A DNA stretch of 37,868 nt from a virus (lineage: Duplodnaviria; Heunggongvirae; Uroviricota; Caudoviricetes), in IMG/VR virus record IMGVR_UViG_3300021256_000061; one strand, written 5' to 3'. The notes beneath the pieces were generated by a model, which had not been told where the DNA came from, searched no databases, and saw only the letters and a list, made by a program, of their open reading frames with translations. The translations under genes and the position numbers were made by a program. Positions 13,670 through 37,573 of the stretch are shown here, in pieces; position 1 is the stretch's first letter; each line of letters opens with the position of its first letter.

Positions 13670-15390
13670 AAACTTTTGAATTTATTTACGCCGATTTTTT
13701 TCTTTGGCTGCTGAGAGTTATTAGTATTTATTGCTTTACTACTATTAGTTTTTTTTGCAAAAATATTGTCTACCATAACATTTTTAAAGTTTAAGTAGTC
13801 TTTATGGTAGAGATTTCTTAGCTTCTCTGCGGCGTCAAGTATTTCGTTTTTTACGGAACCAAGGTCCATATAACATCTCTGGGGAGAGAAAATTTTTTCA
13901 TCAACGAAGTTCAATGTCTTCTTCGCTCTAGACCAGGCAACATATTGTATGTGTTGTTCTGCTTCTATCTCCCACGGCTTTGTCGCCAAAGGGCTAGGCA
14001 TTAATGAGGGGCAGACAATAAAAATATTATCAGCTTCTAATCCTTTGGCTTTGTGTACTGTACTTAGACAGATACCTTGTCCGTTGCTGTCGGTATAAAT
14101 TTTATTAATGCGACTTTTAAGATACATTAAATCGGTTGTCCCATTTCCTAAAATTTCAATAGTTTTTATGGAATCGTAGAGTTTCATAAATTTCTCGGTT
14201 TGGATTGCATCTTCAAAGGCTAGTCCTTCTGTTTCTACGCTTTTCCTTAATGATTTCAAGAGACTTTTATATAGTCTGGGTATTACTCCGTCTACAGAGA
14301 AATCAAAACTGAGTGTTGTTGAATTTGTGCTGTCCATTAAGGCGTTGAGATTATTACCAATATCACCGCCTTTTATGTATGCATTAATATTTTTTTTAAT
14401 GTAGTCCGCATAAAGGACTGAGAGTGGAGCTGAGTTCCTGCACAACACCATATCCCCAGGCTTTGCGTCAAAAATGCTTACATCGTAATTAACTTTACCT
14501 TCAATTGCATTTGGTGCAGCCTGAATGTCTGGTACTAATGTCTGTAATTTTTTTATGATAGCAATTGGACAACGGTAACATATAGGCAAATCAAGTTGAA
14601 TAGTATTGCTCTCTTTAAGAAAGTTTTCAAATGCCGATTCATCGGAACCGCACCACGCATTGATTGTTTGGTCTTTGTCCCCAATGGCCACAAACCTAGT
14701 GCCCCTTCTTAGGCATTTCCTAAAAAGTTCTTGGCGAATTGGTGATGTGTCTTGAGCCTCGTCTATTATTATCCAGTCAAACTTAAATTTTTTTGTTCCC
14801 AGCCCAAGCTCGTATGGGAGCCACTCCATATCAGTATAATCTATTGTCGAAATATTTTGCTTGCCCCAGGCTAAAATTTTTTCCACCGTGGACACTTCGT
14901 TATCAACGCATAATATTCCATATTTTTCTGCGACGCGCCCAATTTCCGCCTCGCTTTGGCATTTATTGTATCTAGATAAGTCCGTTAGTTCTTCGCAATT
15001 CTTCTTGTAGCGTTCGTAATCTTCTGGCGAAAGGTAATCTTTGTTATCCCTAAGTTTGGGAAGATTTTTGTTGATAAAGGTTTTATATTTGAACGCATCA
15101 AGTGTTATGTTGGGATATTTTTCTCTAATAATTCTATAACCAAGGGCATGGAAAGTCCATGCGTAAACATTGGGTTTATCTTGTATCCTCTCTGCGAGTT
15201 CGTTTGCTATGCTCTTATTAAAGGCAAGGAAGAGAACTTTTTTTTCAGAGGGAATATAGTCAAGGGCTTTAACTGCTGTGGTTGTTTTGCTGGACCCAGC
15301 TTTTGCATTTATGACAGCGTTTCCTACGCCTGTTGCAAAAAAATCGAATATTTTTTGCTGGTATATGCTCGGTATAAAATTAAATTCCAT
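13657..15390 (-). CDS. UvrD/Rep-like SF1 helicase
   Basis: 577 aa. NAKAGSSKTT, LAFNKSIA, TFHALG, IIDEAQD, GDKDQTI, CYRCP, STVHKAKGLEAD, YVAWSRAK. Confidence 0.88.
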   Translation of the reverse strand: MEFNFIPSIYQQKIFDFFATGVGNAVINAKAGSSKTTTAVKALDYIPSEKKVLFLAFNKSIANELAERIQDKPNVYAWTFHALGYRIIREKYPNITLDAFKYKTFINKNLPKLRDNKDYLSPEDYERYKKNCEELTDLSRYNKCQSEAEIGRVAEKYGILCVDNEVSTVEKILAWGKQNISTIDYTDMEWLPYELGLGTKKFKFDWIIIDEAQDTSPIRQELFRKCLRRGTRFVAIGDKDQTINAWCGSDESAFENFLKESNTIQLDLPICYRCPIAIIKKLQTLVPDIQAAPNAIEGKVNYDVSIFDAKPGDMVLCRNSAPLSVLYADYIKKNINAYIKGGDIGNNLNALMDSTNSTTLSFDFSVDGVIPRLYKSLLKSLRKSVETEGLAFEDAIQTEKFMKLYDSIKTIEILGNGTTDLMYLKSRINKIYTDSNGQGICLSTVHKAKGLEADNIFIVCPSLMPSPLATKPWEIEAEQHIQYVAWSRAKKTLNFVDEKIFSPQRCYMDLGSVKNEILDAAEKLRNLYHKDYLNFKNVMVDNIFAKKTNSSKAINTNNSQQPKKKIGVNKFKSFLKK

Positions 15391-15564: not shown

Positions 15565-15656
15565 CATATTATTATGAGTATGATAGTCAAAAGCCCAATA
15601 TCTCAGTCGATGCTTCGACCAAGAAGATTTCTGACGATATTCTATATGATTTTTTT

Positions 15657-22413: not shown

Positions 22414-25400
22414 ATGAAAACATTGTATATAAACGAGGCACAAAAGAAAAAAATAAAAAAAGTGATAGCTGCTCAAGACCAGGTTGGCGGTAAGGTTAAT
22501 GCTGGTGTCATGGAGCCTGTCGCCCATATCACCGAAAACACTGAAGAAACAATCACTCTTTATCATGGGGTGAAATTTGATGGAATGGAGTTTGCCCTCG
22601 CCAATAATAGGTTGGAGCCTAGAGTTTGCTCGGAGGGTGGTCCTAAAGCAATATGGCTCTCAGAAAAACAATATCACTACCCATTTACATTTGAGCTACA
22701 CATTCCTAGACGTATGGTAGAACAAATGACCAACGTGGATTACATTTACACAAAACCAATCTCTCTGAATGAGTTCGGGTGTAAGTTAATCAAAACATCT
22801 TTTTATGTCCACGTGTCGGGGTTTATGGCTACTGTTAACCTTTTGGATAAAAGCTTATTTGAGAGACAATGTAAAATATTGGGTGAGGATTTTCTGACGA
22901 GTTTGTTGTCAACCTTTGAGAAATATCCCGAAATAACTAGCCGTATTGTTGAGCCCGCGCTTGAGGCCGCCGTTCCGCTTGTCCTAAAAGAATCGACGAA
23001 GAAAAAGAAGATTATTAAGAACGACGAGGGAAAAATCGTTCCTGAAATTTGCCCTGATTGCGGTGGAAAGGTTGGTGTTTATATTCAGGGCGAGCCTGTT
23101 TATCTTTGTAGTAAATGCAAAAAATATTTCGGTACAATGCCTTTCCAAAAAAATCTGAAAGAATCCGTACATGGTCTAATGCTTTTGGAAAACGAGGGTA
23201 CGAACATGAAGCGTGCTCGCAAGTACCTTGAAACAATGGGGTATTCTCCTGAAGAAAGGCAAAAAATTCTCGATGCGATTCGTACCGATATACCTAGCAG
23301 CCGTTTGCAACAATGCAAATTCCTCCTTGGCGTCACGAGAATGTATATGGATGGACAGTTGCAGGATGGGCGCTCCATTGCCGAATTGAACAAGGTCCTT
23401 AAATACGTTGCCTCTGACGCGCACGTTAATGAGTACGATTGCGACCTTAACGGCGAAAACCTTGATACATTAGTGCGGAGGTTTAGCGGTGTTGCAAAAG
23501 CCGATTTGGAACAATCCAAAGCAGCGTCTAGCGCGAGACAACTTACAGCCAATAACGACTATACGGTTGTGCCAATTGATAATTATGAGGAGGCGCGAAA
23601 ATACGGAAAGTACACATCGTGGTGTGTAACACATAATGAGGATATGTATAACACGTACACTAATGAAGGTATGGGAAGGTTTTACTTCTGCCTTAGGCGG
23701 GGATTTGAAAATGAGCCTAAAGCAACAGGTAAAAACTGTCCTTTGGATGATTACGGTTTAAGTATGGTGGCTGTCAGTGTCACGATGGAGGGTGAACTCA
23801 ACACTGTCACCTGCCGTTGGAACCACGATAATGGCGGTAGCGATAGCATAATGACACTTGAACAGTTGGAAAATTTGCTCGGGCGAAACTTCTATCAAAC
23901 TTTCATGCCGTACTCGCGGGAAGAACTCCATGCAAAAGGCATCATACTCTTTGACGAAGTTCAGGGGTTACTCGACTCTGGTAAAAGCCCAGAAGAAATA
24001 TTTGAATGGGTTGACAAATTTTATAATGGGGTTGCGGTGGTGGAATTAAATGGTAAAGGCAATTTCATTAATACCGACGGTAAACTCCTTTCAAAGCAAT
24101 GGTTTGATTGGACGGATGACTTTTCCAAGGGGAGGGTTGCACGGGTAGGATTAAACAATAAATGGAATTTCATCAACACCGAGGGACAATTCCCTTTAAA
24201 TCAATGGTTTGATGGCGCGGGGGGATTTCACGAAGGGGTTGCAGGAGTAAGATTAAAAGGTAAATATAATTTCATTAATACCGACGGTAAGCTTCTTACA
24301 AATCAATGGCTTGATTGGGCGAATGATTTTTACAAGGGGGTTGCACAAGTACGATTAAAAGGTAAATACTATCTCATTGACACAAAGGGTAATCTTTATC
24401 CTTGGACCCCCCAAAACTCAATCCCGAAAAACCTGAGGGAATCCAAGGAGGTTGATAGGTGGCGCGACGAATTCGATTACAAACCATATATCAAGTCCAT
24501 AATGAACTTCCTTGCGGAGAAGGGGCTTGAGGTAAAACCGTTCCCTAAGGTGATAATCCACAGGGAGCCTCAGGAGGGTCTATATGTCAAGACTGGGTAT
24601 TATGACCCCGAAACCAGTTGTGTACACCTATTCATTGATTCAAGACACCCCAAGGACGTACTTAGAAGTCTGGTACACGAACTCATTCACCACACGCAGA
24701 ATGTCAGGGGTATACTCGTGGGCTATAACGGCACGACATTGGAGGGCGATGAAGTACTGCAGAGACTGGAATCGGAGGCGTACCTTAAGGGTAACATCTA
24801 TTTCAGGAAATGGACTGAGGAATTGCATCCGACAATTCTGAATACCAAGAAGAATCTCAATGAATCAATCGAAGATGTCTACAATATCGCTGAGGACCTT
24901 GATTGTATTGGCGTTGCGGATACACTTCATGAATTTTTAGTTGATAAAAGAAATGGCATTAAGAAAAAACATTGGAACTTGATTCCTGCGGAACAATATA
25001 AGAACCTTCTAACAAGGTACATGCAAGGCCCATTAACTGCGCGTATCCCAGAAAATATTGTATATGATTGGTTTACTAATATTTTAATACCTAATGCCTT
25101 CGCTATAGACAACATAACAACGCTTGCTGGTCATAACCAGGGCTTTCCAGCGGAAGAAGTTTCTGAGGAATTGGAGTATGAATTCGGTGACCGTTTTGAT
25201 GTAACTGATTACGGTAGTGGATATAAAGCTCTTAACGAGCTCGGCTTTTATGAATGGTGTTCACTTCCTGATGGAAGTGATGGTTGGAGTGACTATGGCA
25301 TAGGGCCCATTTTTGATGAGCTTGCCCAGTATAGACCAAACATGGATGCAGGAGAACTTCTCATATTGATAAACCGCGTGCTCCACATCGGCCACTGTCG

Positions 25401-27495
25401 CGGTGATTTAGCTTCCGCTTTTATTCAGGGTGGCAGTAGGTCTTGTTCCGACATAAGTGGTATTTTGCGTGAGTCAATTGAAAATCCTGGCTTTGCTGCT
25501 TGGTTTGGAAACTCTAAAGTCGTGGATAAGGAAGGTAATCCGCTTCCCATGTACCATGGCACTAATTCAGAATTTACTGCATTCTCAAAGGACTATTTCT
25601 CACATGGAAGCGATGCATATCTCGGCATTGGCTTTAATTTCACTAGTAGCAAATATGAGGCCAGTGGATATGGTGAGAATGTACATGAAGTGTATTTGCG
25701 TGCGGAGCATCCAATGACAAATAAAAGTAAAACAATCTCATTGGGGGCCGTGATGAATGCAATAAAAGAAGTTGATTACGGTGAAGACCCCGATGGCAGC
25801 ATCTGTACAGCGTTGCTAAGTAAAAGGGTTGTAAATCCAACAACTACTGATTTTTATAATGCCGCAAGAGCAATATATGATTATGCGGAAAGTGATGGTG
25901 ATATCTATTCTGCTTTCGGCCTTGCATATAGTGGTTCAAACGATGCGAAAATCACTGAGGTCTTCAAATCAATGGGGTTCGACTCCTGTATCGATTATGA
26001 TAATTATAGCGGAAACATTACTTATGTCGTGGTCTTTGACCCTAATCAAATAAAATCCATCAACGCCCAGAACTTTAACCTAGAAAGTGACGAGACAATT
26101 GACGAAGATATTGATATGTTGGAGGATACAAATCCAGAGGATGTTGACCTTTCGTCATTCGAACCTAAAAAGCAACTTAATCCCCGTTTCTGGAAAAACG
26201 GAAGGCTTGATTCTCGTGTTAGAGTAAGACTTCTTGATATTGCTGACGACTTTATTGAAACACTCAATGTTCCTTGGGTGAACCCTTCCGATATTATTAT
26301 GACTGGTTCACTTGCCAATTTCAACTGGTCAAAAGAACATTCGGATATTGACCTCCACGTTGTCATGGATTTTGATGATGTGGATAAAAATGTTTTACTT
26401 GTTAAAGATTACTTTGATAGCAAGAAGAAGATTTGGAATGATGAGCACCAGAATCTCACCATTGGGGGATTCCCTGTTGAAGTCTATGTTCAAGATATTT
26501 CTGAAGAGCACGCATCCAGTGGAGTGTACTCACTTGAAAAAGACAAATGGATAGTAAAGCCGTCATTGAAGAATTTTGAAGGTGAAATTGATAGCGAGGC
26601 TATTAAAACCAGGGCTGCGGAATACATGAATGAGATTGATGACCTCGAAAATGAATATGAGGACAAAATTGCTGAAACTGACTTGAGTGAACTCCACGAA
26701 AAGGCGGTCGAGTTATTCAAAAGAATTAAGGCCGAGAGGAAAAACGGTTTTGAAAATGGTGGGGGAGAATTTAATACAGGTAATTTAATTTTTAAAACAT
26801 TGAGAAGAAATGGTTATATCGGAAAATTGAGCAGGCTGAAATTAGACACTTATGATGCATCACAATCTCTTTTAAATGAAAATGTAACCGAAGGTGTCTA
26901 TTACCATTACATACGTCTTAGATTTTTAAATGAAATAATAAAGAATAATCGCATCAAACTCAACACAGGCGCTGAAGATGCCCCTGGTGGCGGCTTAGGG
27001 TACCTTTCTTTAACCAGAAACCGTTCGAACGCATATGGTTTTGCTACGTCATATAAAAATCCCGACTATAGGGGTATGGAAAATTATGCACGAATTGAAT
27101 TTGATAAGTCTGCATTTAAAAACATAAGAAATTCAAGTATTAAGCCATATGACTTTTTTGCCTCACAATTCCCCGAGGATGGTCTAAATGGGAAAACATA
27201 TCATTTGAGAAATCTCGAAAGCGGGGAAGATTATGGTAATCAGGATAAAGAACAATTCTGGGCTCAAGCGGAAGATAGACTTATTGCTCCTGGAGATGCC
27301 CATGAGGAAGGTTGTAAATGGTTCATAACAAATGCATTTAAGTATATTAATCGAATAGATATTATGATTCGAGATACTGGATTGTCAGATTATGAGGAGT
27401 TAGTAAGTATACTTAATCAACCAAACTATTCTGCTTGGAAAGAAAAATGTCACATTTACAACAATAATAACAGCAAGTTTAATAGACAATTGTAA
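22414..27495 (+). CDS. Large polyvalent multidomain protein (ART-like, Zn ribbon, WG repeats, HExxH metallopeptidase, ART-PolyVal, Pol-beta-type nucleotidyltransferase, C-terminal ART-like domain)
   Basis: 1693 aa. LYHG...IWLS; CPDC...CSKC; 4-5 WG-type repeats; LVHELIHH; WFGNSKVVD...MYHGT...GIGFNFT...FDPNQIKS; MTGSLANFNW...SDIDLH...VEVYVQD; YYHY...SLTR...QAEDR. Confidence 0.85.
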   Translation: MKTLYINEAQKKKIKKVIAAQDQVGGKVNAGVMEPVAHITENTEETITLYHGVKFDGMEFALANNRLEPRVCSEGGPKAIWLSEKQYHYPFTFELHIPRRMVEQMTNVDYIYTKPISLNEFGCKLIKTSFYVHVSGFMATVNLLDKSLFERQCKILGEDFLTSLLSTFEKYPEITSRIVEPALEAAVPLVLKESTKKKKIIKNDEGKIVPEICPDCGGKVGVYIQGEPVYLCSKCKKYFGTMPFQKNLKESVHGLMLLENEGTNMKRARKYLETMGYSPEERQKILDAIRTDIPSSRLQQCKFLLGVTRMYMDGQLQDGRSIAELNKVLKYVASDAHVNEYDCDLNGENLDTLVRRFSGVAKADLEQSKAASSARQLTANNDYTVVPIDNYEEARKYGKYTSWCVTHNEDMYNTYTNEGMGRFYFCLRRGFENEPKATGKNCPLDDYGLSMVAVSVTMEGELNTVTCRWNHDNGGSDSIMTLEQLENLLGRNFYQTFMPYSREELHAKGIILFDEVQGLLDSGKSPEEIFEWVDKFYNGVAVVELNGKGNFINTDGKLLSKQWFDWTDDFSKGRVARVGLNNKWNFINTEGQFPLNQWFDGAGGFHEGVAGVRLKGKYNFINTDGKLLTNQWLDWANDFYKGVAQVRLKGKYYLIDTKGNLYPWTPQNSIPKNLRESKEVDRWRDEFDYKPYIKSIMNFLAEKGLEVKPFPKVIIHREPQEGLYVKTGYYDPETSCVHLFIDSRHPKDVLRSLVHELIHHTQNVRGILVGYNGTTLEGDEVLQRLESEAYLKGNIYFRKWTEELHPTILNTKKNLNESIEDVYNIAEDLDCIGVADTLHEFLVDKRNGIKKKHWNLIPAEQYKNLLTRYMQGPLTARIPENIVYDWFTNILIPNAFAIDNITTLAGHNQGFPAEEVSEELEYEFGDRFDVTDYGSGYKALNELGFYEWCSLPDGSDGWSDYGIGPIFDELAQYRPNMDAGELLILINRVLHIGHCRGDLASAFIQGGSRSCSDISGILRESIENPGFAAWFGNSKVVDKEGNPLPMYHGTNSEFTAFSKDYFSHGSDAYLGIGFNFTSSKYEASGYGENVHEVYLRAEHPMTNKSKTISLGAVMNAIKEVDYGEDPDGSICTALLSKRVVNPTTTDFYNAARAIYDYAESDGDIYSAFGLAYSGSNDAKITEVFKSMGFDSCIDYDNYSGNITYVVVFDPNQIKSINAQNFNLESDETIDEDIDMLEDTNPEDVDLSSFEPKKQLNPRFWKNGRLDSRVRVRLLDIADDFIETLNVPWVNPSDIIMTGSLANFNWSKEHSDIDLHVVMDFDDVDKNVLLVKDYFDSKKKIWNDEHQNLTIGGFPVEVYVQDISEEHASSGVYSLEKDKWIVKPSLKNFEGEIDSEAIKTRAAEYMNEIDDLENEYEDKIAETDLSELHEKAVELFKRIKAERKNGFENGGGEFNTGNLIFKTLRRNGYIGKLSRLKLDTYDASQSLLNENVTEGVYYHYIRLRFLNEIIKNNRIKLNTGAEDAPGGGLGYLSLTRNRSNAYGFATSYKNPDYRGMENYARIEFDKSAFKNIRNSSIKPYDFFASQFPEDGLNGKTYHLRNLESGEDYGNQDKEQFWAQAEDRLIAPGDAHEEGCKWFITNAFKYINRIDIMIRDTGLSDYEELVSILNQPNYSAWKEKCHIYNNNNSKFNRQL
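23998..24405 (+). repeat. WG (KWG-type) beta-repeat region within the polyvalent protein
   Basis: About 23-aa units (F..GVA.V.L.GK.NFINT.G.....QW.D). Near-identical DNA 'aatttcattaataccgacggtaa' at 24061 and about 24268. Confidence 0.85.
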
Positions 27496-27568: not shown

Positions 27569-29209
27569 ATGAGAAATTTCGAGAATCAGCTTTCAAGAAT
27601 GCAGTCATTAATGACCTATGGCATGCTTACAACTGAAAGTACCGATAAGAGCAGAGCAATTGAATATCATAAGATTGCGAGCGATGGTAAGGCTTATGGT
27701 ATCTTTAAGGAATGCTCTAAGTATTATATTAAGACCGCCCCTGCAGACAAAGAATTGGTAGCAGAGGCATACGATTACATTGGTGGATGGAATAATAGGA
27801 AGAATTATGAATATGAGAGTTTTGCAAACGCTCAGAAGCAGTTTGACCTTAAGATGATGTCTATCAATGAGGCTTGCGGCTCAAAGGCAAATGCCGTGTC
27901 TCTTGACCCTTCAAAGAAACAGGAGTATGTTATTGAGGGTACTGAAAAGATGAAGAACGAGCTTGCTCGTCAGCGCCAGATTATGGCCAACACTGCCACT
28001 ATTATCAATGAAGGTAGCTTTATTGGTGTTGGTGACCCCGAAAAGGTTGCTGGTAACAACGATGAAGATAAACCTTTCACTGAAAAGGCTGAGGCTAAGC
28101 TCGATAAGGACATGTCAGAATCAAAGGGAGAACCCGAGGATATGAGCAATCCTTATGGTGAAGGCGGAGCTGCCGAGAAGGGTAAAGATGTTAAGGATAG
28201 CGATGTTCTCTCCGACGGAGAGGCTGTTGCTGCTCAACATCCTTCAGGCGGAAAAGTCGCCCGTGTAAACGAAAACTGTGAGGATGGCGCATGCTCTTGC
28301 GATGGTTGCAAGGACTGGGGCTCTGAAGGTATTGGCAAGGGCAACGGTGACCCTAAGTCTAATGGCTGGGAAATGGAAGGCCAGCAAAACGTAAACGAAG
28401 GCGAAATTAATGACGCTAAGAGCTGGGATGAAGGACTTCCTGGCGAAGCTGGTACTGGCGAAGCTGATACTGACCACAATAACGACCCATTCAAGGAGGC
28501 CGTTAATGAATCCGAGGATGATGATATTGAAATTCAGGACCCCGAGGCTGGTGAAGATGACGAACCTGTCGAAGATGAAGCGCCTGTAAAGGATGAACTT
28601 CCTGCTGACGCAAATGCAGACGATGCAGAAGAAGATTTGGACCTCGATAATCTTGATGATTTTGAGGATGACGAAATCGCATCACTAGAAAAGGACATCG
28701 AAGCTCTTAGGGCTGAGCTTGAAGCTTTGAAGGATGAGGTTGGCGCCGAAGATGCTCCAGCCGAAGACGAGACGCCTGCCGAAGAAACCCCTGCTGAGGA
28801 CGAGGTACCCGTAGAGGACGAAGCGCCAGCAGAGGAAGAGGTACCTGTAGAGGATGAGCCTGAACTCGGTGGTGAGGAAGACGTTGTCGACGATGACATG
28901 GATGAATGTGATTTGTTTGAAGCAAAACAGAGGTTCATGAATGGCATTGTCGAGAGTGTCGTTAAGTCTATCCTTAACGAAGAAAAAACAATTCTTCATG
29001 ACTTTGGTAAGCATCCTGGTTATCGCAAGAAACCTATGGAGCTTCCTGCAACTGGTTCCGATAACGAAAACGGTATGAGAGACTGGAACGATGATAGCGT
29101 TCATAGCGAAGCACCTTTTGGACAAGGAAAGGGTGATAGCAAGCCATATGAAAAGCTCGTTCAGATGATTACTGACAGCGTTATGGAATCATTTAAAAAA
29201 AAAGATTAA
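27569..29209 (+). CDS. Acidic putative prohead core/internal head protein
   Basis: 546 aa, very D/E-rich, with many INE/VNE sites, a coiled-coil segment and a WDEGLP motif shared with the scaffold. Ends in FKKKD at an A9 run. Confidence 0.7.
   Translation: MRNFENQLSRMQSLMTYGMLTTESTDKSRAIEYHKIASDGKAYGIFKECSKYYIKTAPADKELVAEAYDYIGGWNNRKNYEYESFANAQKQFDLKMMSINEACGSKANAVSLDPSKKQEYVIEGTEKMKNELARQRQIMANTATIINEGSFIGVGDPEKVAGNNDEDKPFTEKAEAKLDKDMSESKGEPEDMSNPYGEGGAAEKGKDVKDSDVLSDGEAVAAQHPSGGKVARVNENCEDGACSCDGCKDWGSEGIGKGNGDPKSNGWEMEGQQNVNEGEINDAKSWDEGLPGEAGTGEADTDHNNDPFKEAVNESEDDDIEIQDPEAGEDDEPVEDEAPVKDELPADANADDAEEDLDLDNLDDFEDDEIASLEKDIEALRAELEALKDEVGAEDAPAEDETPAEETPAEDEVPVEDEAPAEEEVPVEDEPELGGEEDVVDDDMDECDLFEAKQRFMNGIVESVVKSILNEEKTILHDFGKHPGYRKKPMELPATGSDNENGMRDWNDDSVHSEAPFGQGKGDSKPYEKLVQMITDSVMESFKKKD
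28747..28862 (+). repeat. Low-complexity P-A/V-E-D/E tandem repeat linker
   Basis: APAEDETPAEETPAEDEVPVEDEAPAEEEVPVEDEP. Confidence 0.8.
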
Positions 29210-29243
29210 TTAGTCTTGACGAAAAGAAAGTAATCAAGATTAA
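29195..29243 (+). other. Candidate programmed -1 frameshift signal (A9 slippery run plus downstream hairpin)
   Basis: A AAA AAA heptamer at 29197-29203, 6-nt spacer, then a 10-bp stem ttagtcttga (29210-29219) / tcaagattaa (29234-29243). Confidence 0.6.
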
Positions 29244-29739
29244 AAAACATAACAATGAAGCACCGTCCCAGGCACCTATGCCAATGGGCGATGCTTCATC
29301 TGCGTTACCAGACCAAGGGGCACCAGCACCGATGAATCAAGAACCAGTACCACCTGTAAACGACCCAGCACTAGAGGGGGATTCGCCTATAGATGATGCC
29401 GCTCCAGAAATGTCGGGGAAAGTTAAGGAAATAGCAGACATCGCTGGGGAGATAAGTGAGAAGGACCAGGAAACGGCTCTTGCATATCTTCGTTCACTCA
29501 AAGATGCTAGTGAGGAAAACGCCCAACAAGCTGGCGGAGCAGTAGCACAAGATGCTAACATGCCTGATGCCCCCATACAAGAATCTGTAATTTTTACGAA
29601 AAAACAAATTAAAAAAATAAATGAAGCACTCGGGGACGAAAGTCTACAGGCAGAGCTTGATAAGAAAGAACCCGTTGGCCGCTCAACAAAAACCAATAAT
29701 AAACTTACGAGTCCATTTGACCCACCTAAAAACAACTAA
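29203..29739 (+). CDS. Probable -1-frame extension of the 27569 protein (track ORF 29278-29739 is its 3' part)
   Basis: Frame is open from 29197 (RLISLDEKKVIKIKKHNNEAPSQAP) before the first ATG at 29278. Contains IQESVIFTKKQIKKINE. Confidence 0.6.
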   Translation, partial: RLISLDEKKVIKIKKHNNEAPSQAPMPMGDASSALPDQGAPAPMNQEPVPPVNDPALEGDSPIDDAAPEMSGKVKEIADIAGEISEKDQETALAYLRSLKDASEENAQQAGGAVAQDANMPDAPIQESVIFTKKQIKKINEALGDESLQAELDKKEPVGRSTKTNNKLTSPFDPPKNN

Positions 29740-30428: not shown

Positions 30429-31169
30429 ATGGATAAGAAAAAACTCATCATATCACAAAAACAATTTAATCATATTAATGAGGTTGAACAGGCCAATGTT
30501 AATTTAACCGCTAATATTGGAACTGGTGGTGTACCAAAAATGAATCAAATATTGGATGCACCTGAAATGAGAACTGCTGTTCAAAAAACTGGCATGGACC
30601 CGATGTTTATACCACAAACTTATAAGGGCCCACAGGCAAGCCCCACTGTTCAAATTCAAGCTGACGGGGCTGGAAATGTTACATCGGTGCCCGCTGGTAC
30701 GCCGCCAGATGCTGCTCTTGTTGTTAAAAACACCAGTGGCTCAAGTAGCGCAGATGGTACTATACAAGAGTCCTATACAAAGCGAGCCGTAGAAAAAATG
30801 CGTATTGCTAAAATTATGGAGAATGGGACTCGTTTCACGAAAAAACAAATCAACGAAGATATTAATAACGGAAAAGTGTTAAGCGAAGAGGATAGGGATG
30901 CTGTGATTGAATTTTGTAAAAAAAATGATTTTATTGCTAGGATAATTAAACCTGAGTCCCTATTTGGTAGAGATACTGTTTGTGCTAATGTTTCCAGACT
31001 TAGAAATCTCTTCTTAAGTGATTTATATAACCCCAATACAAAAATGTCTCTTGACAAGGGTGCTAGCTTGCCTCATAATGTTGATGAAGGTGCGCTGCCG
31101 ATTCATGTTTGGGTATATGACGAAAACAATTTACTTAAAGAAGAATATATAATTTTCTTGGAACGATAG
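30429..31169 (+). CDS. Hypothetical putative virion protein
   Basis: 246 aa. N-terminal LIISQKQFNHINE, and internal IQES and FTKKQINE motifs shared with the 29203-29739 frame. Confidence 0.7.
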   Translation: MDKKKLIISQKQFNHINEVEQANVNLTANIGTGGVPKMNQILDAPEMRTAVQKTGMDPMFIPQTYKGPQASPTVQIQADGAGNVTSVPAGTPPDAALVVKNTSGSSSADGTIQESYTKRAVEKMRIAKIMENGTRFTKKQINEDINNGKVLSEEDRDAVIEFCKKNDFIARIIKPESLFGRDTVCANVSRLRNLFLSDLYNPNTKMSLDKGASLPHNVDEGALPIHVWVYDENNLLKEEYIIFLER

Positions 31170-33316: not shown

Positions 33317-34036
33317 ATGGAAAAGAAAAATACATTAACCGAAATAAAAAGAGGACAAACTGGACGTGGCCTTCTCATTGAACAGGATGGCTATATGTGC
33401 TTGGAGGAATCTGATAGGAAATTCCTTAAAGAGGGCGTCCTTGAAAGCGGCGAAGCGGGGGGTTGGCATTGTCCCAATCCATTTATTGTTTCTGCTGTTT
33501 TCCAGAAATTCGGTATTGAAAACCATAATGGGCGAATATACCCAGAAGACGTTCTTAAACGTGAAGTTGAAAAATATCAAGTTAAAATACAGGAAAAGAG
33601 GGCATACGGGGAATGTAACCACCCGAGTGAGTCCGTAATTGACCTCGGTCGTGTTTGTATGAATATTGTAGAACTTCATTGGGAACAGCACACTCTGGTT
33701 GGCAAAATTGAAATCATAACCTCTGAGGCGTTTAGGCGTTCTGGCATTATTTGTTGCCTTGGCGATACTGTGGCAAATTTGCTTCTTAGTGGCCTTAAGA
33801 TTGGTGTTTCTTCTCGTGCGGTTGGTTCTGTTGAGCAGCGTTTCGGTAAAATGATTGTTGGTGATGACTTGGAACTTATTTGCTGGGATGTGGTTAGTGA
33901 CCCTAGTACGCCAAATGCTTGGATTACAGATACACCAGAAAAAGCTCAACTTTATGTTGAAAATACCCCTAAAAATGGCGAAAAAATATTCGAAAGCCTC
34001 TCAAAATTTGATGAATGGCTTGGCTTGAATAATTAA
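33317..34036 (+). CDS. Prohead core protease (T4 gp21-like)
   Basis: NHNGRIYP, catalytic-His motif GECNHP, catalytic-Ser motif IGVSSRAVGS, and DVVSDPS. Upstream of scaffold and capsid genes. Confidence 0.92.
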   Translation: MEKKNTLTEIKRGQTGRGLLIEQDGYMCLEESDRKFLKEGVLESGEAGGWHCPNPFIVSAVFQKFGIENHNGRIYPEDVLKREVEKYQVKIQEKRAYGECNHPSESVIDLGRVCMNIVELHWEQHTLVGKIEIITSEAFRRSGIICCLGDTVANLLLSGLKIGVSSRAVGSVEQRFGKMIVGDDLELICWDVVSDPSTPNAWITDTPEKAQLYVENTPKNGEKIFESLSKFDEWLGLNN

Positions 34037-34139: not shown

Positions 34140-35606
34140 ATGAGCGCTAAAGATAAAAAAAATATTGCTGCTGAAGCACTAGTTACTGCCGATAATATTA
34201 AGGCCGCAATTAAGGAAGAAAGCAAAAGCACAATACAAAATCTTCTTCAAGAAGCCGTTAAAGATTACATGAGAGATGCTATTGACGGTGATGAGGACGA
34301 TTTTGAAATACAAGACGACAACGAAAAGGATGCTGCCGAAGATAATTTGAATAACGATGCAGAATCATCCACCGACGACGCTAAGGATGGTGAGTTCCCA
34401 GAAGGTGAAGACTTTAAAGAGGTACCCGATGACGAACCAGCAGCCAAAGACGGTGAAGAGGCTAAGGATGACGCCGAAGATTCATCTGAGGATGAAACCC
34501 CAGAGGAAGGTGGCGAAGATGAATGGTCTGAGTTTGACAAATTTAAGGTAGATGATGATACATATGACCTTACGGGCGAGAAAGACTACGATTCTGTAGT
34601 GAAAGTTTACAAACTCCTTAAAGATGAGGATAATATCGTCGTTAAAAAAGACGGTGACAAACTCACCTTGAAGGATGGTGCAAATGACGCTGAGTATGTG
34701 ATTGACCTTGGTGCTGACGATGAGAGTGATTCAGAGCCTGCAGAGGAACTCAAGGAAAACAACATCGCTGGTATCCCTGAAAATTTAAAAGAAAACAAAA
34801 AAAATCGTAAGACAATGAAAGAAAACAAGGAAAGAATATTCGAGGTTGACCTTGGATATACAGACAACTACCAAAAGAAAGACCCTATTGAAGGTCTATC
34901 CAACAACGAACCTGGCAAGGGTAAGGATTGGGACGAGGGACTTCCTAAAGGAACTGAAAAGCCTTGGGTTGGTGATAAAGTAAAGTCCGCAGGTGAACCT
35001 TATGAGAAGGCTGTTAATGAGACTGAAGAGCCCGCTCTTACGGATATTACTGAACCTGAAAAACCCGAAGAGGCTCCAGTGGAAGAGGCTACCAATGTTG
35101 GTGGTGCTGTCCAGGAAAGGGGTGCAGGCATAAGCCACATTCCTGCAGGACGCGAAGAGTACGTACCAGACGGAAGTCGTCACCTCTCAGCAGGCGGTGA
35201 TTACAAAGAAGTCAAACTCGCTGAATCCATTTTAGCCAAGTCCGAGGCTATTCTTAAGGAAAACAAAGAACTTAAGGCAACCCTTAACAAAGTTACCGCT
35301 CTCCTTCAGGAAGCACGCGTTGTTAACGTAAGCCTTGGAAAAGTTACTAAACTCTTCCTTGAGAACACCACCACGAAAAACGAAAAGGTGGACATTATTA
35401 ATCGCTTCAATGAAGCAAAAACAATTGAGGAATCTAATGCTCTTTATGAGTCAATTAAGAGAGAACTCAACAACACTAAGCAGAGTGTTATGCTTGAAGG
35501 AGCTTCTGCAACCGCTAAGGGTTCAGAGATTAACGAGAACAAAATCTATGAATCTAAGGACCTTCTCGATATCAGAAGTTTCATGAAAAGAATGGATAAC
35601 TGCTAA
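34140..35606 (+). CDS. Prohead core/scaffolding protein (T4 gp22-like position)
   Basis: 488 aa, acidic, with a C-terminal coiled coil and many L-x-E sites. Located between protease and major capsid genes. Confidence 0.78.
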   Translation: MSAKDKKNIAAEALVTADNIKAAIKEESKSTIQNLLQEAVKDYMRDAIDGDEDDFEIQDDNEKDAAEDNLNNDAESSTDDAKDGEFPEGEDFKEVPDDEPAAKDGEEAKDDAEDSSEDETPEEGGEDEWSEFDKFKVDDDTYDLTGEKDYDSVVKVYKLLKDEDNIVVKKDGDKLTLKDGANDAEYVIDLGADDESDSEPAEELKENNIAGIPENLKENKKNRKTMKENKERIFEVDLGYTDNYQKKDPIEGLSNNEPGKGKDWDEGLPKGTEKPWVGDKVKSAGEPYEKAVNETEEPALTDITEPEKPEEAPVEEATNVGGAVQERGAGISHIPAGREEYVPDGSRHLSAGGDYKEVKLAESILAKSEAILKENKELKATLNKVTALLQEARVVNVSLGKVTKLFLENTTTKNEKVDIINRFNEAKTIEESNALYESIKRELNNTKQSVMLEGASATAKGSEINENKIYESKDLLDIRSFMKRMDNC

Positions 35607-35650: not shown

Positions 35651-37573
35651 ATGCGCGAATTTTTAACAAGCGGTCAGGTCGGAACCATCGAACTGAACGA
35701 ACAAAGAAAAATCAGACAACAGATTACTGAGCGTTGGGACAAACTCGGAATGACCGAGGGTCTCAAGGGACTCGTAAAGGAAAATATCGCAACTCTTTAT
35801 GAGAACGAGGCAAAGCAGCTTCTTTCAGAGGCTACCGACGCTAACAACAGCGGTTCTTTCGAGACTGTGGTATTCCCTATCATCCGCCGTGTCTTCAGCA
35901 AGCTTCTTGCTAATGACATTGTCTCTGTACAGGCCATGAACCTTCCTGTAGGAAGACTTTTCTTCATGCTCCCTGTTACATCCGAGCGTAATTGGTCAAG
36001 CGACGCTATCGAAGATGGTGTTACCGCTTCTCACAATGGTCTCCAGGGCTATGAGAGGACTGACCGCCGCAACGGAAACAAATACAACCGCTTCTATCTT
36101 CCTGACGAAGTAGTTAACGGTATGGAATTCACCTACACCATGGCCGACGGTACCACTGGTACTAGCGAGACCTATGACGCAGCCGTTGAGGCCGCTGGTA
36201 AGGGTGGACATGTAGAGCAGACTAACCCTGAGGTTACTCGCTACATGAAGAAGAGCCTTTATGACCTCTTCTACAACGACTTCCTCTATGACAATTCTAA
36301 GGGTAAAATCCACATCAAGGTTGGTGACGTTACTCCTATGGGATTTGTTAAGGGTGAACTCGTAGAACTTACTGACGCTAGCCAGATTAAGCTCTATGGT
36401 GACGGTACTGTACGTAACATCATCGTTAAAGTTGGTGGTTTCTCATCATTCAACGCTGGCAAACTTACTGGTCCTGACGGAAACGAAATGGACACCGAAG
36501 CTTTCTTAGCTTCTCTCAAAGTTGTTGCTGCTAAGGCTATTGGTTCAGCTACCGCTGATACTGCTTCCTTCGCAGAGGGCGACAACATTAATTTCCGTGT
36601 TGTTACACAGAAATATGGCAAGGGTATTGTAGAGTATGCATCAGCATGCGACGCAGAAGGCTGCATCTACATTGACCTCGACCTTAGCAAGCCTGTTAAG
36701 AAGCAGGGTGCATCTATCGACGGTTACGTTGGTGTTGCTCTCGAGGACGTCGAAGACGTTATCTCTGACGCCGCTTCTCTCTTCAAGGCTGCTTGGTGCC
36801 AGTATGACTCACTTGAGCTCGAAACCGAGATGGGTGAAGTTTCCTTCAAACTTGACAGTGTAACTGTTTCAGTTGAAGAGCGTAAGCTTCGTGCAACTTG
36901 GTCTCCTGAACTCGCCCAGGACGTAAACGCATTCCACAACATCGACGCTGAAGCTGAGCTCACCGCTCTTCTCTCAGAACAGATTGCTGCTGAAATCGAC
37001 CGTGAAATTCTCCGTGACCTTCGTAAGGCTGCCCCTTGGCAGGCACGTTGGGACTACAACGGATGGCGTCGTGCAGCTGGTTTCTCAACCAACTACACCC
37101 AGAAAGACTGGAACCAGATGCTTGTTACCAAGGTTAACCAGATTTCTGCTCAGATTCACAAGTCTACCCTTCGTGGTGGTGCAAACTACATTGTAGTTTC
37201 TTCTGAAATCTCTGCAATCTTCAATGACCTTGAGTACTTCCACGTAAGTGATGCATCTGCTGAGTCAGACCAGTACAACATGGGTATTGAGCGTATCGGT
37301 TCACTCGCTGGCCGTTACCAGGTCTACATGGACCCTTATTCACCTGTTAACTCACTCATCATGGGTCACAAGGGTAAGAGCCTTCTTGACACTGGTTACA
37401 TCTATGCTCCATACATCCCTATGCAGCTTACTCCTACCATCTACAACCCTGCAAACTTCGCACCTGTTAAGGGTATCCTTACCCGTTATGCAAAGAAATG
37501 CGTTAACAACCGTTTCTATGGTGCAGTTCGCGTTGACGGCGTTGTATCTTGGGACCCTGCAGAACTTCGCTAA
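35651..37573 (+). CDS. Major capsid protein (T4 gp23-like)
   Basis: 640 aa. PIIRRVF...VQAMNLP.G..F, RKLRATWSPELAQD..AFHNIDAEAELTALLSEQIAAEIDREI, GYIYAPYIP, PVKGILTRY. Highly biased codon usage. Confidence 0.95.
   Translation: MREFLTSGQVGTIELNEQRKIRQQITERWDKLGMTEGLKGLVKENIATLYENEAKQLLSEATDANNSGSFETVVFPIIRRVFSKLLANDIVSVQAMNLPVGRLFFMLPVTSERNWSSDAIEDGVTASHNGLQGYERTDRRNGNKYNRFYLPDEVVNGMEFTYTMADGTTGTSETYDAAVEAAGKGGHVEQTNPEVTRYMKKSLYDLFYNDFLYDNSKGKIHIKVGDVTPMGFVKGELVELTDASQIKLYGDGTVRNIIVKVGGFSSFNAGKLTGPDGNEMDTEAFLASLKVVAAKAIGSATADTASFAEGDNINFRVVTQKYGKGIVEYASACDAEGCIYIDLDLSKPVKKQGASIDGYVGVALEDVEDVISDAASLFKAAWCQYDSLELETEMGEVSFKLDSVTVSVEERKLRATWSPELAQDVNAFHNIDAEAELTALLSEQIAAEIDREILRDLRKAAPWQARWDYNGWRRAAGFSTNYTQKDWNQMLVTKVNQISAQIHKSTLRGGANYIVVSSEISAIFNDLEYFHVSDASAESDQYNMGIERIGSLAGRYQVYMDPYSPVNSLIMGHKGKSLLDTGYIYAPYIPMQLTPTIYNPANFAPVKGILTRYAKKCVNNRFYGAVRVDGVVSWDPAELR

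Follow-up and report, generated by a model that had tools for sequence, protein, structure and literature searches.

How is a reading frame expressed when its conserved coding sequence begins well ahead of its first start codon? The question is raised by an uncultured tailed phage (Duplodnaviria; Heunggongvirae; Uroviricota; Caudoviricetes) represented by the 37,868-nucleotide (nt) stretch of DNA in IMG/VR record IMGVR_UViG_3300021256_000061, hereafter the window. Here, a gene for an acidic protein, open reading frame 1 (ORF1), ends in a run of nine adenines (A9), and a second open reading frame, ORF2, begins in the -1 frame within that run. A preliminary description of the DNA had proposed that slippage on the run fuses the two products. 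From the comparison of sequences, we conclude that A9 at 29195-29203 is very probably a site of programmed -1 recoding that would yield an ORF1-ORF2 fusion. No description of this site was found in the literature searched, and it is apparently an undescribed example of a well-known recoding trick.

The 3' end of ORF1 reads TTT AAA AAA AAA GAT TAA and contains the slippery heptamer A_AAA_AAA in the zero-frame phase. Counted from 29197, the -1 frame has no stop before the one at 29737-29739, and it encodes KKRLISLDEKKVIKIKKHNNEAPSQAP ahead of its first start codon of any kind, ATG 29278. Directly 5' of the A run, this frame is ended by a TAA, so that the conserved start of ORF2 can be entered only within the run. 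The preliminary description had given the end of ORF1, the heptamer, the open -1 frame and the first ATG as they stand in the sequence, together with products of 546 and about 723 amino acids (aa); the predicted fusion is indeed 545 + 178 = 723 aa long, with a mass of 78.9 kDa compared with 60.0 kDa for ORF1, and both products are acidic. The K-rich junction is cut by trypsin, and the predicted GluC peptide across it is SFKKKRLISLDE.

The A9 tract is the sole coding homopolymer of nine or more in the window. Runs of A8 occur inside other genes (30918-30925, 34155-34162 and 34797-34804), runs of A8 (or T8) are also found in minus-strand genes at 13749, 14390, 15238, 16544 and 16711, and the other runs of nine or more, at 15650, 20729, 33055 and 37743, are all intergenic. 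Stop-codon reassignment or readthrough as a way of extending ORF1 was considered and rejected: the next frame-0 stop is encountered seven codons on, and genetic code 11 gives long ORFs throughout the window.

To analyze the conservation of the site, we fetched 83 related loci and retained the 58 non-redundant orthologues with enough downstream sequence, which share 33-86% identity in the conserved C-terminal domain (C-domain) of ORF1. Every one of the 58 carries an in-phase X_XXY_YYZ heptamer at the very end of ORF1, namely A_AAA_AAA in 51 loci, A_AAT_TTT in 3, A_AAT_TTC in 1, A_AAA_AAG in 2 and A_AAA_AAT in 1. The length of the run is exactly nine in 47 of the 55 A-run loci and 10-11 in six more (A9-A11 in 53/55). 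The zero-frame stop is located 0, 1 or 2 codons past the heptamer in 8, 25 and 25 loci, respectively, and follows it directly in all A_AAT_TTY and A_AAA_AAG loci. In the relatives, no -1-frame stop occurs for 460-880 nt past the site. The +1 frame meets a stop within at most 4 codons in 95% of the loci, compared with 17% at control positions. The base before the A run is T in 52/55 loci, though its codon encodes many residues, and this T makes the -1-frame TAA. Thus, the A run and the -1 relation of the two frames, which the preliminary description had noted in the window, are kept in nearly every homologue of the frameshift type. Across the 58 loci, the site holds all three frames under tight control, with the -1 frame shut before the heptamer and the zero and +1 frames shut after it; the zero- and +1-frame stops are built from the -1-frame [LIV]-x-E codons, for example, CTG ACT GAG.

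Codon choice indicates what is being conserved. Elsewhere in the same ORFs, lysine is encoded by 1305 AAA and 1290 AAG codons (50% AAG), and all five internal KKK triplets (5/5) mix the two, whereas the terminal triplet is all-AAA. Given that the residues flanking the terminal KKK vary freely among relatives, the constraint acts on the nucleotides, and the run is kept to an extent well beyond chance. At the protein level, 118 of the 120 best ORF1 homologues terminate with KKK plus 0-2 residues and are not fused; a single in-frame gene in homologues, which according to the preliminary description would speak against frameshifting, is therefore not what these proteins represent. This regularity also bears on the suggestion that the locus is a single 723-aa gene in which the homopolymer was miscounted during sequencing or assembly, or recently mutated. 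Homopolymers are error-prone, and the relative L052, which has one A more, reads in frame; dozens of assemblies produced by different studies on different platforms, however, share A9 and the frame offset at 30-86% protein identity, so we regard such an error or mutation as having a negligible chance of being the explanation.

For the window itself, the homopolymer length on which the preliminary description depended is supported by contigs rather than by reads. The separate Logan assembly of the probable source run spans the site at depth 20 with A9 and without an indel, and an RNA-library contig of nearly the same sequence likewise shows A9, although neither contig is fully independent proof, and assembled contigs drop minor variants such as A10 transcripts. 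Run X2 yielded no contig over 29105-29254. Two runs labelled as bovine-gut metatranscriptomes, X6 and X7, which are probably one data set filed twice, contain an identical 250-nt contig corresponding to 28960-29209, with 2 mismatches and A9 intact; this contig stops exactly at the ORF1 stop, 29209, which may represent an assembly-graph break at the homopolymer.

The segment of ORF2 that precedes its first ATG is where translation from the shift site and translation from a conventional start make different predictions. Gene callers place the start of ORF2 at ATG 29278 in the window, and an annotation of this kind is found in all assemblies; accordingly, one alternative is that ORF1 and ORF2 are two ordinary separate genes, with the A run being just the lysine-rich tail of ORF1. 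Intergenic gaps of 68 nt do occur elsewhere in the window. Among relatives, however, the position of the first -1-frame ATG drifts from codon 3 to codon 51 past the shift, and the conserved motif [LIV]xE-[KR]KV[LI]K[VI], often with GDAS, lies upstream of it. Codon differences between related pairs within the pre-ATG segment fall at -1-frame positions 1, 2 and 3 in 211, 161 and 610 cases, respectively, with 428 synonymous compared with 313 non-synonymous changes. This comparison shows that the pre-ATG stretch is coding and points to translation of ORF2 from the shift site rather than from its ATG; the impression in the preliminary description that the stretch is protein-like and includes an L-D-E site is in line with the conserved motifs and the excess of third-position changes. 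Two separate genes would also account neither for the all-AAA site nor for the replacement of the A run by other canonical heptamers in the same phase, and a scan of the window found no promoter-like site ahead of 29278. One relative, L024 (L024:5594-6416), truly has a separate ORF2 gene and is informative in this respect: its ORF1 ends AAG AAG AAC TAA and is followed by a terminator-like GC-rich hairpin with a T run, and its ORF2 starts MSEKIQIKEGQILSIIDKVLRENRKVIKV, having acquired its own cargo-type N-terminal helix before the conserved junction motif. Taken together, these observations make the separate-gene arrangement very improbable for the window.

A variant of this alternative is termination-reinitiation, in which a non-canonical restart near the ORF1 stop would produce a separate ORF2 protein that includes the junction peptide. 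The ORF1 stop overlaps the start of the open -1 frame, and the junction peptide would in this way be translated without any fusion. No conserved start-like codon is present past the run in the relatives, and reinitiation leaves unexplained the all-AAA run, the in-phase alternative heptamers and the genes, described below, in which the C-domain and ORF2 are joined. We consider it extremely unlikely.

A search with a profile of ORF2 products in the loci that lack the frameshift identified in-frame equivalents of the predicted fusion. In three of these loci (L031:6719-7717, L040:6198-7106 and L041:1462-2439), the second gene consists of a duplicated ORF1 C-domain (FGKHPGYRKKPM...) fused in frame to the ORF2 domain, and its junction (...VKKVISEDVDEKTFLRLP) matches the predicted trans-frame junction. 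The main gene of each of these loci ends without an A run and, in L031 and L041, is followed by a terminator-like hairpin. The C-domain duplication is a gene-duplication alternative to the frameshift. In L052, which has A10, both ORFs are joined and read ...SKKKRLNENTFLSLGNN in frame, and the junction is exactly that predicted by a -1 shift in its A9 sisters L037, L039, L021, L053 and L054; differing by a single A, L052 could be an assembly or population variant. In the phylogenetic tree, the frameshift-free forms adjoin the A_AAA_AAG and A7 loci, inside the family, and L052 is a sister to A9 loci. The existence of in-frame equivalents, established by comparison among the relatives, shows that a covalent link to the ORF1 C-domain is compatible with a working ORF2 domain, and it lends indirect support to the predicted trans-frame protein.

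The coexistence of A10 in L052 with A9 in its sisters could also be read as DNA phase variation, whereby A9 sub-populations would make two proteins and A10 sub-populations only the fusion, the ratio being set by the population. Another relative, L042, has A10 as well, and homopolymers are mutation-prone. However, the run is exactly A9 in 47/55 independent assemblies, the source-run contig shows no indel at depth 20 (a figure that refers to contigs only), and clades with non-homopolymer heptamers cannot phase-vary, leaving phase variation with a slim chance of being the correct explanation.

If the A9 tract is a recoding site, at which level does the slip occur? In the mechanism we propose, most ribosomes would finish ORF1 one codon past the run and release the 546-aa acidic protein, and a minority would move one base back within the run (A_AAA_AAA), read on as AGA TTA ATT... 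and synthesize the 723-aa fusion. Tandem tRNA-Lys slippage on the ribosome would be the conserved core mechanism. A zero-frame stop directly past a heptamer favors shifting, and the nearby zero-frame stop of ORF1, possibly with the hairpin located 6 nt downstream in this clade, may aid slippage. RNA polymerase slippage on the nine adenines, by which A9 would become A10 in the transcript, very likely adds to the product and could even be its dominant source in the window. Transcriptional slippage as the chief source of the same fusion, with (host) RNA polymerase adding one A and the mRNA then being translated normally, has in our estimate a substantial probability, somewhat short of an even chance; given that recoding takes place, the ribosome and the polymerase appear roughly evenly matched as the origin of most of the product at A9 sites, and each probably has a share in it.

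Several features of the family point to the ribosome. The A run is always in the right phase for X_XXY_YYZ across the 58 loci, which the polymerase does not need. The A_AAT_TTT/C clade (4 unique loci), which is positioned beside A9 and A10 rows in the tree, and L051, the locus with A7, retain the -1 architecture while offering no run on which the polymerase could slip, and both A_AAA_AAG loci have only A8. Other observations weigh against a purely ribosomal -1 shift or limit the force of the comparison. The 58 loci are kin, so that the counts given above are not counts of independent events. The conserved run is A9, not A7 (47/55), where a heptamer would suffice for the ribosome, and A8 is tolerated in other genes of the window, with a coding A9 only at this site. 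A_AAA_AAA is a weaker ribosomal shifter than A_AAA_AAG in Escherichia coli, whereas bacterial RNA polymerase slips efficiently in vivo at runs of nine A or T, the run length on which Thermus dnaX relies for polymerase slippage (PMC5009743). An unusually fast closure of the +1 frame, as seen here, would be expected from slippage into several frames, since it would limit the products of transcripts with -1 nt or +2 nt. No RNA structure is conserved family-wide: the 50 nt downstream of the site fold with a mean of -7.3 kcal/mol compared with -6.8 kcal/mol at controls (median percentile 0.38), and covariation in the stem present in the window is not significant among close relatives, with 128/500 shuffles scoring as high. 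Finally, a -1 ribosomal shift does not account for L042, whose run is A10 and whose ORF2 is in +1, and both L052 (A10 in frame) and L042 (A10, +1) can be seen as the outcome of one-base changes in run length. The preliminary description had mentioned transcriptional slippage as an alternative for A9 runs, and the prevalence of runs of exactly nine makes it a serious alternative or a co-mechanism.

L042 (L042:4255-4800) is a distant relative in which the zero frame runs for six more codons and an ORF2-like frame is in +1, not -1. It is the only locus of its type and could reflect either a homopolymer error or a site that needs the loss of one A (or a +1/-2 shift).

The preliminary description had proposed a 10-base pair (bp) stem with one G-U pair and a 6-nt spacer as the stimulator of the shift. 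The stem is present, at the canonical spacing of 5-9 nt from the heptamer: the hairpin is the minimum-free-energy structure, and the 96-nt stretch has z = -3.8, with 0/200 shuffles folding as well. Its core, CTTGA/TCAAG, which encodes L-D and I-K in the -1 frame, is retained in 7/8 of the closest relatives, and 77% of the stem cells pair in close relatives compared with 44% or less when the partner is slid. Because covariation is no better than in shuffles, coding constraint explains this conservation equally well. Several clades carry hairpins of their own 5-20 nt downstream of the site. Thus, the stem of the window clade is real and kept among close kin, and its role as a stimulator, the other part of the earlier proposal, is that of an unproven candidate. 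The stem was also considered as an intrinsic terminator and rejected, there being no plus-strand T run after it and no terminator in this place in the scan.

What could such a fusion be for? A motif of the form [LIVMF]xE, as in the cleavage sites of T4-type prohead proteases, is found 3-11 residues past the shift in 58/58 loci, compared with a background density in ORF1 of 0.034 per residue, and the neighboring genes start with helix-plus-[LI]xE motifs. We therefore propose a carrier-and-cleavage scheme: ORF1 would bring the ORF2 part along into the prohead, at a ratio that is low and fixed, and a gp21-like protease would cut at the candidate L-D-E site, seven residues past the junction, freeing the ORF2 polypeptide. 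Under this scheme, the frameshift might be a cargo-loading device, in which ORF1 serves as a cleavable carrier, ORF2 is supplied at a fixed sub-stoichiometric level and protease releases it in the capsid, the whole replacing an N-terminal capsid-targeting tag; we advance this reading tentatively. By the same tentative reading, the in-frame duplication of the C-domain, the targeting helix of a separate ORF2 and the outright gene fusion could be other routes taken by relatives to the same end. The preliminary description had likewise envisaged that two products are made at a fixed ratio to assemble the head core; a head-core setting agrees with the flanking Peptidase_S77, Gp23 and ART-PolyVal genes and the conserved neighborhood, and a fixed ratio is what we, too, infer. 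If carrier and cleavage hold true, this would be a new way by which phages meter proteins into the capsid.

Features of ORF2 conserved across the family include a P/M/D-rich linker, a helical core, an [IM]QE-SVIFTKKQLxKINE element and an SPFxxPxF end. In the window, positions 29575-29631 encode I-Q-E followed by the cargo-helix-like SVIFTKKQIKKINEAL, the local form of a family-wide [IM]QE-SVxFTKKQLxKINE. The SVIFTKKQIKKINEAL element resembles the N-terminal helix-plus-[LI]xE motifs of the neighbor genes at 22414, 29745, 30429 and 31171, and, together with I-Q-E, may represent both a second site for the protease and a targeting helix inside the protein.

The window comes from an uncultured jumbo phage whose head module is of the T4 type (Table 1). 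The genes around ORF1-ORF2 encode an ART polyvalent protein, cargo-like proteins, the prohead protease, a protein in the scaffold position, likewise downstream, and the Gp23-type major capsid protein. This neighborhood is conserved: 73 fetched loci have a homologue of the polyvalent protein upstream of ORF1, and 20 related loci have a Peptidase_S77 protease within a few kb downstream of ORF1-ORF2. Metagenomes contain 735 ORF1 homologues, on contigs of up to 390 kb. Among GenBank phages, megablast found no match to the region and tblastn none to ORF1, so there is no cultured relative to lean on.

Table 1. Positions in the window of the recoding site, the two reading frames and the head-module genes around them
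Feature	Position	Strand	Remarks
Polyvalent protein	22414..27495	+	1693 aa; ART-PolyVal domain; directly upstream of ORF1
ORF1	27569..29209	+	546 aa, 60.0 kDa, isoelectric point 4.15, acidic; zero-frame product
TAA in the -1 frame	29194..29196	+	Directly 5' of the A run; closes the -1 frame
A9 slippage tract	29195..29203	+	AAA AAA AAA in frame 0
Slippery heptamer A_AAA_AAA	29197-29203	+	Zero-frame phase
ORF2, -1 frame	29203..29739	+	178 codons plus stop
Trans-frame junction segment, -1 frame	29203..29277	+	RLISLDEKKVIKIKKHNNEAPSQAP; upstream of any ATG/GTG/TTG
Zero-frame stop TAA	29207..29209	+	One codon past the heptamer
Hairpin, candidate frameshift stimulator	29210..29243	+	10-bp stem (29210-29219 / 29234-29243) with one G-U; 14-nt loop; 6-nt spacer from the heptamer
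TAG closing the +1 frame	29211..29213	+	Two codons past the heptamer
L-D-E, candidate T4-type prohead-protease site ([LIV]-x-E)	29215..29223	+	Seven residues past the shift
ORF2 as placed by gene callers	29278 (ATG)		153 aa
P/M/D-rich linker of ORF2			
Conserved helical core of ORF2	29419-29505		
C-terminal SPFDPP of ORF2	29710-29727		
Prohead core serine protease	33317..34036	+	Peptidase_S77, T4 gp21-like; E 5e-21; downstream of ORF1-ORF2
Gp23-type major capsid protein (T4)	35651..37573	+	E 2e-73

ORF1 consists of a conserved N-terminal domain (N-domain), an acidic low-complexity/coiled-coil middle part and the conserved C-domain (HDFGKHPGYRKKPM...). No PHROG or Pfam family matched ORF1, ORF2 or the three genes after them, a profile search of ORF1 against PDB returned coiled-coil noise only, and the ESM Atlas contained only unnamed phage clusters for ORF1, with a model at a predicted local distance difference test score of 0.43. 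AlphaFold2 modeling of the N-domain yielded a confident core at residues 30-102 only; apart from this small N-terminal core, ORF1 is predicted to be mostly disordered. A Foldseek search with the N-domain model found nothing in PDB at E 0.001 or better and only uncharacterized phage proteins in BFVD. No paralogues of the ORF1 C-domain or of ORF2 were found elsewhere in the window. Designating ORF1 a head-core protein is a reasonable reading that rests on gene context. Some ORF1 homologues are longer, at 670-775 aa (P0008-P0032), and have 120-200 residues inserted after the acidic region and ahead of the C-domain; in some cases, there is a second insert with a GNPFNEKEMDK motif. A C-terminal fusion was considered as the source of the added length and rejected because the extra residues are internal and the C-terminus is still KKK plus one residue.

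The ORF1-ORF2 site adds a large and deeply conserved recoding family, represented in the rumen and gut by dozens of uncultured phages of 200-390 kb, to the few frameshifts in phage morphogenesis genes, and places it in the head-core module rather than in a tail chaperone or the capsid shell. In every member, annotation pipelines mis-call ORF2 from a drifting internal ATG and miss the long product, which is 723 aa in the window. The family also provides a natural comparison set, with A9, A10, A7, A_AAA_AAG-plus-stop, A_AAT_TTY-plus-stop and three frameshift-free solutions, that is useful for analyzing when polymerase slippage and when ribosomal slippage is used.

Among the closest known systems is the G/GT pair of tail assembly chaperones, for which Xu, Hendrix and Duda reportedly described in 2004 a -1 frameshift in lambda and most tailed phages. 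As in G/GT, the shift here is conserved near the end of a morphogenesis gene and would yield a minor, C-terminally extended form, and its position and frame relation are kept while the sequence diverges. The G/GT pair sits between the genes for the tail tube and the tape measure, whereas ORF1-ORF2 belongs to the head module, between the polyvalent cargo protein and the prohead protease. The possibility that ORF1-ORF2 is itself a G/GT pair was rejected: besides this difference in position, there is no PHROG or Pfam chaperone match and no sequence or profile similarity.

With respect to the slip site, whose signal is of the dnaX/IS type, a close parallel is dnaX, which in E. coli undergoes a -1 ribosomal frameshift at A_AAA_AAG (PMC5009743). 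Both systems use an A run in lysine codons as the shift site and would obtain two products at a set ratio from one gene start, and the A9, A_AAA_AAG and A7 sites of the phage family mirror the Thermus and E. coli solutions (PMC5009743). Unlike in E. coli dnaX, where the shift truncates the product, the shift in the phage would extend ORF1 by 178 residues into the next ORF, and the phage loci show neither an upstream Shine-Dalgarno-like element nor a strong conserved stem-loop. The gene family and the biology are unrelated.

Frameshifts in capsid genes are represented by 10A/10B of phages T7 and T3 and the major head protein of Lactobacillus phage A2 (cited in PMC5009743). These resemble ORF1-ORF2 in having a -1 shift at the end of a head-protein gene that gives a minor extended head component. 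They differ in that the protein extended there is the major capsid protein on the shell, whereas the carrier ORF1 is acidic, mostly disordered and separate from the Gp23 gene, and in that a protease motif follows the ORF1-ORF2 junction.

The proposed delivery into the head has a close counterpart in phage T4. The internal proteins and Alt of T4 bear an N-terminal capsid-targeting sequence that is cut off by the gp21 protease at L/I-x-E. The phage described here likewise encodes an S77 protease and Gp23, and [LIV]xE follows the junction in 58/58 loci. Unlike in T4, where a short N-terminal tag directs a separately translated protein, the proposed carrier would be the whole upstream protein, joined to its cargo by recoding.

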